DNA from: Cenarchaeum sp.
Lineage (GTDB): Archaea > Thermoproteota > Nitrososphaeria > Nitrososphaerales > Nitrosopumilaceae
Direction: 5' to 3'
DNA: 64,000 nt
Assembly: GCA_965212015.1 (NCBI GenBank)
Contig: OZ243037.1
Coordinates: forward strand, 1,568,001-1,632,000
Position numbers and translations under genes: made by a program. Positions 19,285-30,573 of this stretch are shown piece by piece (within the stretch, counting starts at the first letter, position 1; every line of letters begins with the position of its first letter). A model generated the notes under the pieces. It worked only from the letters and a program-made list of their open reading frames with translations, was not told the DNA's origin and searched no databases.

Positions 19285-20310
19285 TTGAATCCCCGGGCCG
19301 TTCAGGAGATATCTGACTATGAGCACCACCTGATACATGACAGGCTGGACTATTTCAAGCCGCGCAGCGCCGCTAGCAGACAGACGTTTGCGCAGCAGGT
19401 CCGCAGCGGCCTGGGCGGCACGCCAAAGTCGTTAAGCCCGAAATTCTTTTATGACTGTAGGGGCTCGTCGCTTTTTGAGCAAATCTGCAGGCTGCCGGAA
19501 TACTATCTGACCCGGACTGAGATCAAAATCCTCGGCGGGCTGGGAGATGAGCTGGCGCCATACATCGCAGCAGACACGCGCCTGGTGGAGCTTGGCAGCG
19601 GCTCGTCGGTAAAGACCAGGCTAATCCTTGACGTCTTTGAGAGGATTCAGGGCAGGACGGAGTATTTTCCGATAGACGTCTCTGACATACTCGAGGACAG
19701 CTCCCGGCGGCTGCTAGGCGACTATGCAAACCTGCACGTTACTGGCATTATTGACACGTACGACAGGGGCCTGGAGTTTGTCAGGAATTTTGACGACGCC
19801 CCGAATTTGATCGCCTTTTTGGGATCCAGCTTTGGCAACTTTTCTGCCGGCGAGGGCGGCGCCTTTTTGAGGCTGCTCAACTCGTCGATGGGCGACTCTG
19901 ATCACTTTCTTGTGGGCCTTGACCTGCTAAAGGATGCGCGCCTTTTGGAGGATGCGTACGACGACTCGCGGGGGGTCACTGCAAAATTCAACCTCAACGT
20001 GCTCTCCAGGATAAACGGGGAGCTAGGCGGCAACTTTGATCTGGGAAAATTCTCGCACCATATAGTCTTTAACAGGGACATGCAGAGAATCGAGATGTAT
20101 CTGAGATCAAAGGAGGCCCAGTCGGCAAGGATTCCAAAGTCGGATCTGGAGGTGCACCTGTACGAAAACGAGCTGATTCACACGGAGCACTCGCACAAGT
20201 ATACCGTGCCGCAAATCCGCCGGATGCTGGGCGATTCGGGATTTGCAATAGACAGGATATGGCGTGATGACATGGCGCACTATGCGCTGGTGCTGTGCTC
20301 AAAGGCCTAG
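19285..20310 (+). CDS. egtD: L-histidine N-alpha-methyltransferase (ergothioneine pathway)
   Basis: PKFFYD.RGS.LFEQI..LPEYYLTRTE, VELGSG, AYDDSRGVTAKFNLN, IHTEHSHKY. Confidence 0.95.
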   Translation: MNPRAVQEISDYEHHLIHDRLDYFKPRSAASRQTFAQQVRSGLGGTPKSLSPKFFYDCRGSSLFEQICRLPEYYLTRTEIKILGGLGDELAPYIAADTRLVELGSGSSVKTRLILDVFERIQGRTEYFPIDVSDILEDSSRRLLGDYANLHVTGIIDTYDRGLEFVRNFDDAPNLIAFLGSSFGNFSAGEGGAFLRLLNSSMGDSDHFLVGLDLLKDARLLEDAYDDSRGVTAKFNLNVLSRINGELGGNFDLGKFSHHIVFNRDMQRIEMYLRSKEAQSARIPKSDLEVHLYENELIHTEHSHKYTVPQIRRMLGDSGFAIDRIWRDDMAHYALVLCSKA

Positions 20311-21617
20311 GCGTCCTGGGCGCACCTGAACCCGGCAAACATCCATCTCTCATCCAGCCTGAAAAAGTTCCTATAGCTTCCCCTGATTGACATTGCCGGG
20401 GTTCCAAACGAGCCGCCCCTTAGGACCTTCTGGCCTGTAAACCACTTGTCGTTGTACTCATCAAAGCCGGTCTTGAACTTTGGATATCCGGCAAACTCTG
20501 AGGACGTCCACTCCCACACGTCTCCGATCATCTGGTGGCACCCGCTCGGGCTCCTTCCCTCCGGATACGAGCCTGCCGGGGTGCACCCCCACTGGTATGA
20601 CTCTAAAAGGTTGGCAGTGCCGGCGTCTGGCATTTTGTCGCCCCACGGAAACAAGAGCTTTCTCTGCTTTTGCTCGCTCCACAGCGCGGCCTTTTCCCAC
20701 TCTGCCTCAGAAGGCAGCCTCCTTTCGGCCCACTTGCAGTATGCGCTGGCCTCGTAAAAGCTCACGTGGCACACCGGATCCTCCGGACTGATCCTCCTTT
20801 TTCCTGCAAAATCGGCCACAAACCACCGCCCGTCGGCCTTTTCCCAGTACATCGGCGACTCCCACAGGTTTTCCTTGAGCTTTTCCCATCCGTCGGCAAG
20901 CCAGAACTTGTAGTCGCCGTATCCGCCGTCGTCCATGAACTCCATGTACTGCCCGTTGGTGACTGGCAGCGAGTCTATCTTGTAGTCGTCAAGATACACC
21001 CTGTGTTCGGGCAGCTCAATGTCGTAGCAAAACCCGTCGCCGCCGTATCCCGCATGGTACAATCCGCCCCCGATTGCGATCTGGCGGTTTTTCACGTGTG
21101 GCTGTGCGGGCCGCCGGTTTTTTCTTGCGGGGGCATACCTGTCGCCGAGCATGTGCTGTAAATCATACACGAGCAGCTCCTGGTGCTGGCATTCGTGGTG
21201 GAACCCCGTCGTGATTAGCTTGTATTCGCGCGCGCCAATCCGGCGGGTCCCGATAAAATCCCTTACGCGCCTGTTGACTGCATCAAAGTATTCAAAGACC
21301 TGCTCTAGCGTGGGCCTGGACACCGTTCCCCTGCTTGCCTTGTCCTTTGGCACCCCGAACTGCTGATAGTACGAGTTGAGGTATTCTGAAAACTCTTTGG
21401 AGTAAAATTCGTAATCCCCGTCAATCTTGTACAGTATGGCCTCGTATATCCAGCTTACGTGGCCCAGGTGCCACTTTGGCGGGCTTGTGTACGATTCTGT
21501 CTGCGCCATAAAGTCGTCCTTTTCCAGGGTCCTTACCAGCTCGAGTGTCCTGTCTCGGGTGCACTCGAACTGTTCTAGGAGCGGTTTTTTTAGCTCCTGT
21601 CCCGGAATAACAATCAC
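20307..21617 (-). CDS. egtB: Ergothioneine biosynthesis sulfoxide synthase
   Basis: SPPKWHLGH, HHECQHQE, FGE-sulfatase domain (RLPSEAEWEKAA, GDVWEWT, YRNFF); start estimated so it does not overlap proS. Confidence 0.9.
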   Translation of the reverse strand: MIVIPGQELKKPLLEQFECTRDRTLELVRTLEKDDFMAQTESYTSPPKWHLGHVSWIYEAILYKIDGDYEFYSKEFSEYLNSYYQQFGVPKDKASRGTVSRPTLEQVFEYFDAVNRRVRDFIGTRRIGAREYKLITTGFHHECQHQELLVYDLQHMLGDRYAPARKNRRPAQPHVKNRQIAIGGGLYHAGYGGDGFCYDIELPEHRVYLDDYKIDSLPVTNGQYMEFMDDGGYGDYKFWLADGWEKLKENLWESPMYWEKADGRWFVADFAGKRRISPEDPVCHVSFYEASAYCKWAERRLPSEAEWEKAALWSEQKQRKLLFPWGDKMPDAGTANLLESYQWGCTPAGSYPEGRSPSGCHQMIGDVWEWTSSEFAGYPKFKTGFDEYNDKWFTGQKVLRGGSFGTPAMSIRGSYRNFFRLDERWMFAGFRCAQDA

Positions 21618-21657
21618 AGGCCATTTCCCGCATGCGGCATTATTATGTCTGTGGTGC

Positions 21658-23097
21658 CTAGTATCCCCTGGCAAACAGGGGTGCTGACTCTGAGGGCTTT
21701 TTGCAGACGATGCACGTGCCGGACCCTGCTCCGGAGGGTATGACCCTGATGTCGGCCCCTGTATCGCCCTTGATCTTTTCCTCGCAGCCTGAATCCCCGC
21801 ACCAGCCGGCCCTGACGAATCCGCCCTTTTTGAGCTCATTTACAAAGTCGGGGTACTGCTCGGCGTCTTTGGTATTCGCATCCAGGATCTTTTTTGCCGC
21901 GGCTAGCATCTTTTTTTGTATCGAGTCTAGCAGGCCTGATATGTGGGAATCTAGGCCATCAAACGAATGGCTTGACTTTTCCCTGTTGAACCTGGTCGCA
22001 ATGACGGTCTTTTTGTCTTGTATGTCCCTCGGGCCGATCTCGATTCTTATCGGCACGCCCCTTAGCTCCCAGTCGTGAAATTTAAAGCCCGGGGTCAGCT
22101 CCTGTCTTGAGTCCATGTGCGTCCTGATGCCGGATTCCAGCAGCTGCTCTTTTATCCTGCCTGCCTCGGACATTACTGCCTTTTTGTCGTCCATGGAATA
22201 GTAGATTGGAATTATGACGACCTGGACTGGGGCCACCTTTGGCGGCAGGACAAGCCCGCTGTCGTCTCCGTGCACCATGATCATGGCGCCTATCAGCCTC
22301 CACGAGACGCCCCACGACGTCTGCCATGAATGGTGCTCTATGTTTTTCTTGTCTACAAACTTTATCCCAAACGGCCTTGAAAAGTTCTGCCCGAGAAAGT
22401 GCGAGGTTCCCATCTGCAGCGCCTTTCCGTCTGGCATCATCGATTCCATGGTGCTGGTGTATACGGCCCCCACGAACTTTTCACTCTCGCTTTTCTTGCC
22501 GGTGATCACGGGGATTGCCAGCTCTTCTTCTACTGTCTTTTGGTATACCTTTAGAATCTCCTCTGTCTCGGCCCTGGCCTCCACCTCGTCTGCGTGGACC
22601 GTGTGGCCCTCCTGCCACAAAAACTCCGATGTCCTAAGAAACGGCTTTGTGCCCTTGATCTCCGCCCGCAGGGCGGTGTTCCAAAAATTGATCCGCAGCG
22701 GAAGATCACGCCAGCTTTTTATCCATTTTGCGTACAGCGAATAGGCCAGAGTCTCCGAAGTCGGCCTCAGGGCCAGCCTTTCGCCCATCTCGCCGTCGCC
22801 AGAATGCGTCACCCAGAACACCTCCGGATTAAACCCCGCAAAATGCTCCTTCTCCTTGCTCAAAAGGGATTCGGGAATCAGCACGGGCAGAAATCCGTTT
22901 CTGACGCCGCGCCTGGAAAACTTTTCATCAAGCGATCTTTTCAGCGACTCCCATATGGAATAGCCGTCGGGCCTCAGGACGATGAGTCCCTTGACTGGGG
23001 CATAGTCGGCAAGCTCTGCCTTGATGACTAGCTGCGTGTACCATTCGCTAAAATCATCCTTTTTTGATACGGTAATCCCAATGTCTTCCTTGCCCAA
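21658..23097 (-). CDS. proS: Prolyl-tRNA synthetase (archaeal type)
   Basis: FSEWY, LRPTSE, FLRTSEFLWQEGHT, QTSWGVS, C-terminal FARGY. Confidence 0.97.
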   Translation of the reverse strand: MGKEDIGITVSKKDDFSEWYTQLVIKAELADYAPVKGLIVLRPDGYSIWESLKRSLDEKFSRRGVRNGFLPVLIPESLLSKEKEHFAGFNPEVFWVTHSGDGEMGERLALRPTSETLAYSLYAKWIKSWRDLPLRINFWNTALRAEIKGTKPFLRTSEFLWQEGHTVHADEVEARAETEEILKVYQKTVEEELAIPVITGKKSESEKFVGAVYTSTMESMMPDGKALQMGTSHFLGQNFSRPFGIKFVDKKNIEHHSWQTSWGVSWRLIGAMIMVHGDDSGLVLPPKVAPVQVVIIPIYYSMDDKKAVMSEAGRIKEQLLESGIRTHMDSRQELTPGFKFHDWELRGVPIRIEIGPRDIQDKKTVIATRFNREKSSHSFDGLDSHISGLLDSIQKKMLAAAKKILDANTKDAEQYPDFVNELKKGGFVRAGWCGDSGCEEKIKGDTGADIRVIPSGAGSGTCIVCKKPSESAPLFARGY

Positions 23098-27620: not shown

Positions 27621-27763
27621 GCCAGTTCTAATCCGCCCCGTGTTATTATCTATAGCTAAACTGCAGCGGGCCTCCATCCGCACGGCTGGTCTTAAGATTT
27701 TAAATTCAATGGTAAAAATTAGTGCGTTTGGGAGTTTATAGAAAAAGGCCGCGACGGCATACC

Positions 27764-28633
27764 GTGGACATCCCGGGACTGCTTGAGAAATATTCGTTGG
27801 CCGATTTTCCCGCGGGACTGGGCGGGTGCCGCAACGACGGCGAGCCCCATGCATGCTGCGAGTATGACGTGTCCGTGTTTGACGAAAAAGACGAGCAGGA
27901 TACGATAGTTGAATTCCGCGGCGAGACGGCGGTGATTCACCACTGTTCGCTGGGCGAGACGCGCTCTGATGTACTGGTGCAGCTTTTGGGAATCGACATA
28001 ATCCAAGACGAGCAGTGGGAGCTACGAATGATGCTGTCTCGAATCCGCGAGAAAAGAGACGCGCTGTACCGGGACTATATGAAAAACTGCCTGATTGACT
28101 CTCTTTTTTGCATTACAAAATCGCGCGAGGGCCTGAGGACGTCGGACCTGTTTGCCCCGTGCTGGATAAAGTGCGCCGCGTTTTACCTTGCCGACGCAAT
28201 TTTGCTGTACCATGCAATCCGGCCCAGCCCCGCGCATTCCCTGCAGGGCCTGCGGACGCTGGGGGGCAGGATAGGCCAAAAGTTTTCGGCCGTAAATGAG
28301 TGCATCGGAATAGAGAGATCCACCCCGGTGCTGCTAGAGCGCATGTCAAAGTCCACGATCGGATTCTCCGACATGGTGGAGGGCGGCGGCCGCTCTGGGA
28401 TAATCCGGGCCAAAGGCGACTATTTCATGAAAAACTCGCTGTTTGCGGACTGGTACTTTTACCTCGGATGCGTCAACCGGAACAACCTGGTGGGGATAAA
28501 GCGCGATCTTGCAAAGAGGCCAGAGCTCATCCACGTCCTCAAGACCGCATTTGACATCGAAAGCGACAGGCAGGCGGTGCTGAGGCAGGCCGACGTGCTG
28601 TTTGGGGCCGCCCACGAGATTCTCGCACTCTGA
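27764..28633 (+). CDS. Hypothetical protein, possibly a degenerate nucleotidyltransferase fold
   Basis: Long open ORF; GLGGCR..CEYDV resembles the GS..DxD motif. Confidence 0.65.
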   Translation: MDIPGLLEKYSLADFPAGLGGCRNDGEPHACCEYDVSVFDEKDEQDTIVEFRGETAVIHHCSLGETRSDVLVQLLGIDIIQDEQWELRMMLSRIREKRDALYRDYMKNCLIDSLFCITKSREGLRTSDLFAPCWIKCAAFYLADAILLYHAIRPSPAHSLQGLRTLGGRIGQKFSAVNECIGIERSTPVLLERMSKSTIGFSDMVEGGGRSGIIRAKGDYFMKNSLFADWYFYLGCVNRNNLVGIKRDLAKRPELIHVLKTAFDIESDRQAVLRQADVLFGAAHEILAL

Positions 28634-28687
28634 GCGCCGGATCTGCTATTCTAAACCTTTAAAATCTAGGGCGAGATCCACATTATT

Positions 28688-28822
28688 ATGTCAGATGCAG
28701 CATGCGGATGTGCAGCACAGGCCGAAAACGGCACAGAATGTGACTGTACTATGCAAGGTGAGTGCTATTGTGACGCTACTTGTGATTGTAAACTGGATCT
28801 TTGCAAAAACGCAGAACACTAG
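28688..28822 (+). CDS. Metallothionein-like Cys-rich peptide (44 aa; not in the ORF track)
   Basis: MSDAACGCAAQAENGTECDCTMQGECYCDATCDCKLDLCKNAEH; TTTAAAA box ~25-30 nt upstream; T-rich tract downstream. Confidence 0.8.
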   Translation: MSDAACGCAAQAENGTECDCTMQGECYCDATCDCKLDLCKNAEH

Positions 28823-28850
28823 CTACTTTATCTCTTATTTTTTTATCAGG

Positions 28851-29033
28851 TCAGTCTTCCTCTTCATCCTCTAGTCCCCACGACTTTACCAGCTCCTTTC
28901 GGAACACGTCTGACTGCTTGTCATTTAGACTGACGCCGCAGTTTTTGTGCGTGGGAACCACGATCAATCCCTTTAGCTTGAATTCCACTTCAAAAAGGTG
29001 GATCTTTGGGCAGTCGCACATATCTGAGTTCAA
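28851..29033 (-). CDS. Small putative metal-binding protein
   Basis: CDCPKIH..HKNC motifs and an acidic tail. Confidence 0.65.
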   Translation of the reverse strand: MNSDMCDCPKIHLFEVEFKLKGLIVVPTHKNCGVSLNDKQSDVFRKELVKSWGLEDEEED

Positions 29034-29100
29034 AACAACACCTCCTCTATATTTGCCTTTGAATAAACTTTAACTAGGGATTGCCTGAATCCCATACCGT

Positions 29101-30573
29101 ATGAAAGTGGTGCTTGCCGTGCTGGCAGTGTTGATCTCGGGATACGCCGTGTTCGGACTTGCATACGCGCAGGATTTTGGCGGCGGGGTGGACAAGGATG
29201 GATCCTGGTACGCCGGCGAGGGGCTAAAGCACGGGGATTATTTCTATTATGAAATGTGCCACGAGTCCCACAACGACTGTATCGACTTTGAGATGGAGCT
29301 CTGGGTACGGGGGGACGTCCAGGTGGGCACTGAGACAAAATGGCTCGTAGGAACGGTCGTGTATGACGGAAACAAGATAGTAAAGGGAAACATGACGCTG
29401 GGAAAGGTCGCCTCGGAGCCTAGCGGGCATACGACCGGCCTGACGCAATACGCCGCCGCATTCAAGTCCTCAGTCGTCTGGCTTTCTGCGTTTGCGTCGT
29501 CCTATGACGGGGGCGGCGACAAGGGTCCCAAGAAATTCAGGGACATCTCTTGGGGAAAAATTGCAAACATCGGAGGCGAGCAGGTAAAGCCGCTTGCGCT
29601 GGAATCCATTACCGTCCCTGCCGGCACGTTTGATGCCGTGGTGATAGGATGGAAGACCGGCGGACAGCTAAGCCAAATCTGGGTGGTGGACGACTTTCCG
29701 TTTCCGGTAAAGGCCAGCACGTGGGTGCACACCTCTGAGGGAATACCCCCGCAGGAATACCGCTTTGAGCTCAAGGACTACAAGGAGAACGTGCAAAAAG
29801 ACCCGTTTTCTGACGTGGTAGGCAAGGACAGGATAAAGCCGGAGGGCTGTCCTGAGAACTATGATCTTGTAAAGGTCCGCAAGTCCACGAAAAATTTTGA
29901 TTATCTGATCGATCTGAAATACGGCCCGGAAAACCCCAAACAGGGCTGTGACATACAGTGGATTATCAACTTTCATAAAAAAACAGACGAGACAGAGTTT
30001 CTCTCCCAGGTGCAGTACGACATTCTGGTGGTGGACGACGATCTGAACCTGATCCGCTCCATTGCCCAGGATAACGGCAGGAAATCCTTCTATTCCGGAT
30101 CCGGACAGGTGCGCACATTCACCCCGGTCGACGAGCCGGTGGGGACTGCACACTATGTGGTCTGGATTTACGGCCTGTCCCCAAAGCACATAGTCCCCTC
30201 CACCACGCCTGACTATCTTTTGGTGGAAATTGAGATAGAGCCGGAACCCGGAGGCGATGCGGCCCGGAGCACAGGCGAGGATCCGGCCATAGACACCGGC
30301 AGGACGGCAGGCATCCCCGAGTGGATCAAGACAGTCGCGGGATACTGGACCGGCGGCCAGAGCTCAGACGGCGAGTTTATCGGCGCAATAGAGTTCCTAA
30401 TCCGCGCGGGGATCATAACTGTCTCTGCTGAATCATCGGGTGCCTCCACCGGGGCAGACGTGCCGGCATGGGTAAAGACTACCACCGGATACTGGACCGG
30501 CGGCCAGAGCTCAGATGACGAGTTTATCGGGGCGATCGAGTATTTAATTGGGCAGGGAATAATCGGCATCTGA
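29101..30573 (+). CDS. Exported thaumarchaeal surface protein with two C-terminal (I/V)P.W(I/V)K..W..EF.GAIE.LI domains
   Basis: Signal peptide; VTVPAGTF-like motif; duplicated C-terminal domain with a near-identical DNA repeat (~30340 and ~30487). Confidence 0.8.
   Translation: MKVVLAVLAVLISGYAVFGLAYAQDFGGGVDKDGSWYAGEGLKHGDYFYYEMCHESHNDCIDFEMELWVRGDVQVGTETKWLVGTVVYDGNKIVKGNMTLGKVASEPSGHTTGLTQYAAAFKSSVVWLSAFASSYDGGGDKGPKKFRDISWGKIANIGGEQVKPLALESITVPAGTFDAVVIGWKTGGQLSQIWVVDDFPFPVKASTWVHTSEGIPPQEYRFELKDYKENVQKDPFSDVVGKDRIKPEGCPENYDLVKVRKSTKNFDYLIDLKYGPENPKQGCDIQWIINFHKKTDETEFLSQVQYDILVVDDDLNLIRSIAQDNGRKSFYSGSGQVRTFTPVDEPVGTAHYVVWIYGLSPKHIVPSTTPDYLLVEIEIEPEPGGDAARSTGEDPAIDTGRTAGIPEWIKTVAGYWTGGQSSDGEFIGAIEFLIRAGIITVSAESSGASTGADVPAWVKTTTGYWTGGQSSDDEFIGAIEYLIGQGIIGI

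Follow-up and report, generated by a model that had tools for sequence, protein, structure and literature searches.

What might a protein of 44 residues, nine of them cysteines, do in an ammonia-oxidising archaeon, and is its reading frame a gene at all? The question is raised by a short open frame on the + strand (28688..28822) of a 64,000-nucleotide stretch of the genome of Cenarchaeum sp. (assembly GCA_965212015.1, contig OZ243037.1), a member of the Nitrosopumilaceae; this whole stretch is referred to below as the window. An earlier note, made from the letters of the window, had described the frame as an unannotated, archaeal metallothionein-like gene whose product would buffer copper or zinc in the cytoplasm. 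Our comparative analysis indicates that the frame is a real gene under purifying selection, and that its product is a nine-cysteine module found family-wide in the Nitrosopumilaceae as far as genome sequences tell. A new finding is that the module also serves a membrane protein as its C-terminal tail, which is predicted to be cytoplasmic. We consider it probable, with modest confidence, that the module is a cytoplasmic metal-thiolate cluster protein, metallothionein-like in its chemistry, with metal binding predicted from the arrangement of its cysteines.

A conserved nine-cysteine gene

The coding sequence runs from an ATG to a TAG stop at 28820-28822, and its translation is identical to the 44 residues given in the earlier note. 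The cysteines occupy positions 6, 8, 18, 20, 26, 28, 32, 34 and 39 in the pattern CxC-x9-CxC-x5-CxC-x3-CxC-x4-C, i.e., four CxC pairs and one further cysteine, which confirms both the frame and the residues as first described. The protein has one Tyr and one terminal His, and its N-terminus is free of any hydrophobic stretch, in agreement with the claim that a signal peptide is absent. With a cysteine fraction of 20.5%, it ranks second among the 9,142 ATG-started frames of at least 35 residues in this closed genome of 1.76 Mb.

The gene appears to be equipped with its own flanking signals. An archaeal promoter (28652..28664, + strand) consists of a purine-rich sequence, TAAACC, resembling a B recognition element (BRE), and a TATA box, TTTAAAA (28658-28664), the centre of which lies 27 nucleotides before the A of the ATG. 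As this spacing is the classical archaeal distance from TATA box to transcription start, it is natural to infer that the mRNA is leaderless, with a start site predicted from the position of the promoter, and the promoter itself looks like a strong, constitutive one. A run of seven T (28838..28844, + strand), 16 nucleotides after the stop and inside the 28-nucleotide gap between two convergent stop codons, is a likely archaeal oligo-T terminator. No RNA family of Rfam was matched between 28300 and 29200.

These signals recur in the orthologues. In total, 20 stand-alone copies of the gene and 8 copies fused to the membrane protein were extracted from 30 of 31 loci, and 27 copies were aligned. 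An ATG start is common to the 20 stand-alone copies, each of which carries a TT[TA]A[AT]A box with its first base between -31 and -28 (exactly TTTAAAA in 14/20); a Shine-Dalgarno-like word is seen in only 2/20, and a run of at least five T occurs within 60 nucleotides of the stop in 19/20. Both the TATA box at leaderless spacing and the T-rich terminator that had been noticed in the window are therefore shared features of the family.

The protein itself is conserved with a rigid geometry. Exactly nine cysteines, separated by 1-9/10-1-5-1-3-1-4 residues, are present in 27/27 copies. The residues without any variation are C6, G7, C8, C18, D19, C20, C26, C28, C32, C34 and C39, while at least 90% of the aligned copies retain Q23. 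The module is strongly acidic, with a net charge of -2 to -8 (median -6). The terminal His, to which the earlier note had drawn attention, is indeed present in the window protein, but only 7/27 copies carry it and so it is not a conserved ligand. Substitutions counted by the Nei-Gojobori method gave, for the eight closest copies, a proportion of nonsynonymous differences (pN) of 0.02-0.25 against a proportion of synonymous differences (pS) of 0.2 to >0.75, with synonymous sites mostly saturated. For the closest pair, the only close one in which dS is well defined, dN/dS is 0.025, and across the 190 pairs of stand-alone copies pN/pS has a median of 0.41. The homologs thus display the cysteine conservation and the purifying selection by which the proposal of a gene was to be checked.

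The distribution of the module is equally clear-cut. When 40 related genomes were searched, the nine-cysteine frame was present in 24/24 genomes of the same family, and the other 16 families yielded three weak matches only (expect value, E, 0.005-0.39). A profile built from the 27 copies matched 219/223 other genomes of the window's family (bearing Nitrosopumilus or Nitrosopumilaceae names), a count that includes the unpublished genomes G158, G249, G299 and G340 and becomes 215/219 when these are left out, whereas of 177 genomes from 19 further families of the class it matched one, and that only marginally (E 0.0047). A HMMER pass over 1.84 billion representative proteins returned only 30 matches at E ≤ 0.001, and the 13 that were inspected all had the stand-alone or the membrane-fused architecture, or were fragments or read-throughs of these; a word-indexed search for longer forms yielded two read-through fragments only, the fused form having come to light in the genome searches and the HMMER pass.

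These data bear directly on the simplest alternative, namely that the frame is open by chance and is not a gene. It is short, and the gene caller passed over it in this genome, as would be expected of a chance frame, but the frame, its start, the nine cysteines, the promoter and the terminator are conserved in 25/25 sampled genomes, nearly all further genomes of the family match the profile, and saturated synonymous sites stand alongside little amino-acid change. We give this explanation practically no credence, as the comparative data already refute it.

A second home as the tail of a membrane protein

A second copy of the module was discovered in the same genome, outside the window, where it makes up the 45 C-terminal residues of an open frame of 524 codons (G000:C1:1058293-1059867, + strand); it is 59% identical to the window protein and has its nine cysteines at the same spacing. 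Proteins of this tailed type are single-pass membrane proteins of about 460 residues. In the one encoded by this genome, an N-terminal hydrophobic anchor is followed by an outer domain of about 330 residues and by a 23-residue hydrophobic span leading into SNRQLKKEK. On the cytoplasmic side there is then a conserved motif, GIDPSRL...GGYQTNRGEAQL..., from which a Pro/Gln-rich spacer, variable among the proteins, leads to the module. Because a Lys/Arg-rich stretch follows the hydrophobic span, the positive-inside rule places the fused module in the cytoplasm, and the module is accordingly a cytoplasmic one by its predicted topology. The cytoplasmic location put forward in the earlier note is supported from both sides, by the lack of a signal peptide in the free protein and by the position of the fused module on the positive-inside side of the membrane.

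The stand-alone gene was found in 25/25 genomes and the tailed membrane protein in 14/25, the genome of the window being included in both counts, and the membrane protein as such is present in all 24 family genomes examined besides this one. The 11 family genomes that are without the fused module have membrane-protein frames of 377-470 residues, and the one inspected, L037, keeps the cytoplasmic motif and lacks the cysteine module. Three other families of ammonia oxidisers also possess the membrane protein, as frames of 354-361 residues without the tail. Neither Pfam nor NCBIfam provided a match for the fused protein, and a language-model search with the outer domain retrieved unnamed clusters of Nitrososphaerota only, with LppM (0.78) as a weak lead.

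A phylogenetic tree of the 27 modules, which is based on few columns and leaves most forks unresolved, separates most of the fused tails from the free copies. A single exception nests within a clade of free copies with a support of 100/99; this tail, L022 (G016), begins with a Met and is nearly identical in type to the free copies of that clade. Since a fused tail is nested among free copies, the module seems to have been exchanged between its free and tethered contexts, and the two forms look interchangeable; the L022 tail in particular suggests a recombination between the free gene and the tail. The use of the module as a tail would be no less compatible with tethering or signalling than with bulk buffering.

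Metallothionein traits and family tests

Metallothioneins are described as a class of small, cysteine-rich and aromatic-poor proteins (PMC7558416, section 4.3). The nine-cysteine protein agrees with every trait of this class that can be read from a sequence: its 44 residues (44-49 in the 27 copies) lie within the usual size limit of about 10 kDa, cysteines make up 18.4-20.5% of the module with four invariant CxC pairs plus one Cys, and each copy has only 0-2 aromatic residues and 0-2 His, the latter not conserved, with no other ligand evident. The description as metallothionein-like therefore stands as far as the class traits are concerned, but it does not extend to membership of a known sequence family: none of the 27 copies scored above the cut-off of any metallothionein family in Pfam, the closest being PF00131 with a single member at E 0.019.

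Searches with the module itself gave no match in Pfam or NCBIfam, and a profile search of the PDB retrieved one non-significant cyclotide (E 3.3). In a language-model search, the only named neighbours were metallothionein clusters, namely PF02067 (0.87, with 182 shared features), PF02068 (0.79) and PF00131 (0.77), which are leads only, because all of them fall below the 0.9 level. AlphaFold2, run on the alignment of 27 sequences without metal, produced an unstructured model with a predicted local distance difference test (pLDDT) score of 52.8; such a model is what would be expected of an apo-metallothionein, yet it is equally uninformative.

Two other readings of a small, cysteine-rich protein can be assessed at this point. 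The first holds that the protein carries an iron-sulphur (Fe-S) cluster, or supplies redox-active thiols for the scavenging of NO, H2O2 and other oxidants arising in ammonia oxidation. It is favoured by a protein that is rich in cysteine, cytoplasmic and restricted to ammonia oxidisers, and the invariant Asp beside a Cys could conceivably be a cluster ligand. Nevertheless, Fe-S proteins typically display CxxC, CxxCxxC or CP motifs, whereas the module has CxC only and none of these; neither ferredoxin-type nor other Fe-S families of Pfam, NCBIfam or the PDB were matched, and no Fe-S assembly or redox gene was found in the conserved neighbourhood, which makes this reading quite improbable.

On the second reading, the gene would encode a disulfide-rich peptide destined for secretion, or else a precursor from which a ribosomally synthesised and post-translationally modified peptide is derived. 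Size and cysteine density are alike, and the only match in the PDB, non-significant as it is, was the cyclotide mentioned above. The protein, however, has neither a signal peptide nor a division into leader and core, its fused form lies on the cytoplasmic side of the membrane, and the conserved neighbourhood includes no radical S-adenosylmethionine enzyme or other maturase, no protease and no exporter. A comparison with SCIFF-type precursors was likewise negative, as NCBIfam contained neither a peptide-precursor family matching the module nor a maturase family matching an adjacent gene. We judge a peptide of this kind to be highly improbable.

Copper handling in the genome

Ammonia oxidation and electron transport of these archaea depend on copper enzymes (PMC7785015). 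The closed genome, which is 99.7% complete, contains no HMA domain of the CopZ/CopA type, a search for which all 14 control genomes were positive, and DUF326 (the family of the Csp copper stores) was not found in it either. Within class-wide samples, a Csp occurs in 2/87 genomes of the family and an HMA domain in 22/87 (21/86 without the unpublished G158); among the matches listed, all HMA domains of the family belong to ATPase-type frames of about 800 residues. Nitrososphaera viennensis, which lives in soil and belongs to another family of ammonia oxidisers, is reported to possess CopZ as well as a putative Csp that is induced when copper is limiting (PMC7785015). Given a genome without an HMA/CopZ domain or a Csp, the nine-cysteine protein is an obvious candidate for a cytoplasmic copper or zinc role, and the lack of the usual cytoplasmic copper handlers would leave room for a thiolate-cluster buffer or a hand-over point, an argument that is circumstantial.

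A proposed role and its main rival

On the reading that we prefer, a small acidic cytoplasmic protein would wrap its nine invariant cysteines around a polynuclear metal-thiolate cluster, in which nine thiolates could plausibly hold either three divalent ions (M3Cys9) or some four to six Cu(I), and would thus work like a one-domain metallothionein. Its gene would be transcribed from its own BRE/TATA promoter as a leaderless mRNA ending at the oligo-T run. The module would have two uses, one as the free protein and the other tethered through a flexible spacer to the membrane protein at its cytoplasmic end, and it may act as a buffer or store of copper or zinc in a lineage in which CopZ and Csp are mostly missing. 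Alternatively, it may hand over metal to the membrane protein or sense metal there. The copper or zinc buffering suggested in the earlier note is possible.

Several observations weigh against a metal-buffering metallothionein. In addition to the failure of all 27 copies to reach any metallothionein family of Pfam and to the absence of a predicted fold, the module has turned up in a single family, though all ammonia-oxidising archaea need copper. Its rigid spacing, its invariant non-cysteine residues and its place at the end of a receptor-like protein would suggest a domain for recognition or signalling. Vertebrate metallothioneins are Lys-rich, and an acidic protein combined with an anionic thiolate cluster would give a very negative holo-form. 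No metal-homeostasis gene was found in the window or in the conserved neighbourhood, and no conserved operator-like element was seen upstream of the stand-alone copies besides the BRE/TATA box; since this box is all that is conserved there, a metal-responsive operator is not visible.

Some of these points argue for what we regard as the main rival, a structural zinc-cluster domain (Zn3Cys9 or two ZnCys4 knuckles) used in recognition or signalling and not in metal handling, in which the tail would couple the membrane protein to a cytoplasmic partner, with the free copy competing with or modulating this interaction. Nine-cysteine, three-zinc clusters do occur in domains other than metallothioneins, e.g., in pre-SET/CXC domains. 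The fixed spacing in all 27 copies, together with the conserved G7, D19 and Q23, would suit such a domain, as would the optional nature of the C-terminal addition (with tail in 14/25 genomes, without it in 11/25 and in three other families) and the exchange between free and fused modules, and an acidic surface would suit a basic partner. On the other hand, the module shows no likeness to any solved zinc domain in the PDB profile search, AlphaFold2 gives it no fold, and the stand-alone gene, with a promoter that looks strong and constitutive, is universal even where the membrane protein is tailless. On balance, we think a structural zinc domain rather unlikely, while treating it as the most serious competitor of the metal-thiolate cluster.

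A bolder version of the metal-thiolate reading can also be speculated upon. The module would be the first archaeal metallothionein family and would take the place of CopZ and Csp in the Nitrosopumilaceae as a very small Cu(I)-thiolate store or as a chaperone, and its tethered copy would pass copper to a conserved envelope protein, or sense copper for it, thereby helping to set the copper limits of oceanic nitrification. In this complete form the proposal is distinctly unlikely and is offered tentatively.

Comparison with known cysteine-rich proteins

In the N-terminal (beta) domain of vertebrate metallothioneins, the nine cysteines form four CxC pairs with one more Cys after them, and the domain holds an M(II)3Cys9 or a Cu(I)-thiolate cluster. 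The module resembles this domain (PF00131) in the order of the motifs, in a start only a few residues after the Met and in being almost devoid of aromatic residues. It differs from it in longer loops (x9/10, x5, x3 and x4), in being acidic and not Lys-rich, in the absence of any significant sequence similarity, and in that the nine-cysteine protein is single-domain and archaeal and is also found as the tail of a membrane protein.

Among bacterial proteins, MymT of Mycobacterium tuberculosis is described as a tiny cysteine-rich protein, encoded by a small non-annotated frame and predicted to bind up to six Cu(I) (PMC7558416). Compared by description only, it belongs to the same size class as the nine-cysteine protein and was overlooked in the same way. 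MymT is copper-induced and confers copper resistance, and it comes from another taxon; a fused membrane form does not feature in its description.

SmtA, another bacterial comparison, uses nine cysteines as well. SmtA and BmtA (PDB 1JJD) are presented as prokaryotic, cytosolic, small proteins with multi-metal thiolate clusters, SmtA having a zinc-finger-like fold and His ligands (PMC7558416). The nine-cysteine protein is likewise prokaryotic, small and, by prediction, cytosolic, but it has no conserved His, and neither a Pfam match to PF02069 at E ≤ 10 nor a match in the PDB was obtained. Csps, in turn, are cytosolic stores that bind Cu(I) by cysteine thiolates and are linked to copper-dependent monooxygenases; they are pre-folded four-helix bundles of more than 100 residues that form tetramers (PMC7558416, PMC7785015). 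The nine-cysteine protein, with 44 residues, a single predicted helix of 5 residues and no Pfam match to PF03860 (DUF326), is not a four-helix bundle.

For the tethered form, the nearest analogue, by description only, is provided by the Cu(I)4-thiolate modules of eukaryotic copper proteins, namely the C-terminal tail of yeast Ctr1, Ace1/Mac1 and the Cys cluster of MTF-1. These are CxC-rich modules of 30-40 residues, placed either within a regulator or at the end of a membrane protein that faces the cytoplasm, which fold around a small Cu(I) cluster and so sense copper or pass it on. The carrier of the nine-cysteine tail differs in that it is not a transporter and crosses the membrane only once. 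A search of the literature library used here found no paper on a metallothionein of Thaumarchaeota, of Nitrosopumilus or of archaea generally, and queries on transcription starts and on transcriptomes under copper limitation brought up no paper on the nine-cysteine protein either; to our knowledge, in accordance with reviews, no metallothionein has been characterised in Archaea.

Genomic neighbourhood

The nearest upstream gene (27722..28633, + strand) encodes a protein of about 300 residues, its start codon being uncertain, and ends 54 nucleotides before the ATG of the nine-cysteine gene. A match to this protein is found upstream and on the same strand in 17/20 stand-alone loci, mostly adjacent and about 850 nucleotides away in L004; it has no match in Pfam or NCBIfam.

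A convergent gene for a 56-residue protein (28851..29021, - strand) lies directly downstream in 19/20 loci. The protein starts with MC[DE]C and has an acidic tail, with C2, C4, H8, H25 and C28 invariant, and AlphaFold2 models it as short strands and one helix (pLDDT 70.8). A fold search produced no match at E ≤ 0.001, the top rows being small zinc-finger proteins (E 0.58-1.1), and NCBIfam gave a weak match below cut-off only (E 0.11). This gene is more widespread than the nine-cysteine module: it was found in 217/223 genomes of the family and in 10/10, 66/78 and 4/4 genomes of three other ammonia-oxidiser families, counts that include the unpublished G158, G249, G299, G340 and G376, and in none of the remaining 16 families of the class. 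The 56-residue protein is a candidate for a small zinc- or metal-binding protein peculiar to ammonia oxidisers, and its gene is a conserved syntenic partner of the nine-cysteine gene; adjacency alone is no proof of joint action.

Beyond the 56-residue gene follows a gene for a secreted protein of 490 residues (29101-30573, + strand), which occurs downstream in 16/20 loci, while in L016 its match is located on the opposite side instead. A signal-like segment is present at the N-terminus of the protein, for which Pfam gave a single match, to DUF3108_like, far below the cut-off (E 0.057). Its C-terminus contains two copies of a repeat of about 35 residues (P.W[IV]KT..GYWTGGQSSD.EFIGAIE.LI..GII).

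The wider window holds housekeeping genes, encoding an EgtB-like protein, ProRS, CofE, an NDH-2-like protein, PurE, RadA and L21e. The EgtB-like protein (510 residues, 20310-21839, - strand), whose gene is 7 kb from the nine-cysteine gene, combines DinB_2 and FGE-sulfatase, the domain pair of EgtB-type sulfoxide synthases (ergothioneine-type thiols). Base composition dips locally to 43-44% G+C at 28650-29100, compared with 51% for the genome, over the two tiny convergent genes and their spacers.

Elsewhere in the genome, four more frames of 41-59 residues have 7-10 cysteines in CxxC or CxC motifs, at 456467 (+), 99975 (+), 719595 (-) and 276320 (-), and these may encode other small zinc or metal proteins. 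A frame of 34 residues with nine cysteines at 255427 (-) was dropped, as it had no match in five relatives.

Annotation status

The exact 44-residue protein was not found in a collection of 15 billion proteins, in which the 56-, 490- and 386-residue products of neighbouring genes on the same 1,764,220-bp contig are present. As the products of the neighbours are in the collection and the 44-residue product is not, the gene caller evidently missed the nine-cysteine gene in this genome, for which the label 'unannotated' is appropriate as far as this comparison tells. A search of sequencing runs for the gene listed only contig-type entries, four of them from two studies, and no RNA run. The more general statement that gene callers usually miss it is true here but too broad, since many relatives have called orthologues. 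In other assemblies these are nearly always entered as 'hypothetical protein', and two members of an orthologous cluster from the Joint Genome Institute (JGI) were automatically named 'metallothionein 4'; the named members of the orthologous clusters come from Nitrosopumilus sp., Nitrosopumilaceae archaeon and Thaumarchaeota archaeon CSP1-1. There is a practical warning in a caller that found the 56-residue neighbour and yet missed the 44-residue gene: because of this omission, the transcriptome and proteome data available to date may have been evaluated without it.

Implications for ammonia-oxidising archaea

Nitrosopumilaceae are among the most abundant archaea of the ocean, and the way in which they keep and distribute copper or zinc in the cell is poorly known. 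What is new here is an archaeal, family-restricted nine-cysteine module that exists in both a free and a tethered form. The tethered form offers a concrete way to learn the role of a membrane protein that is conserved among ammonia oxidisers. If the module does bind metal, it would place a metallothionein-type protein in Archaea. We contend that the module, which is cheap to test, bears on the copper economy of oceanic nitrifiers.

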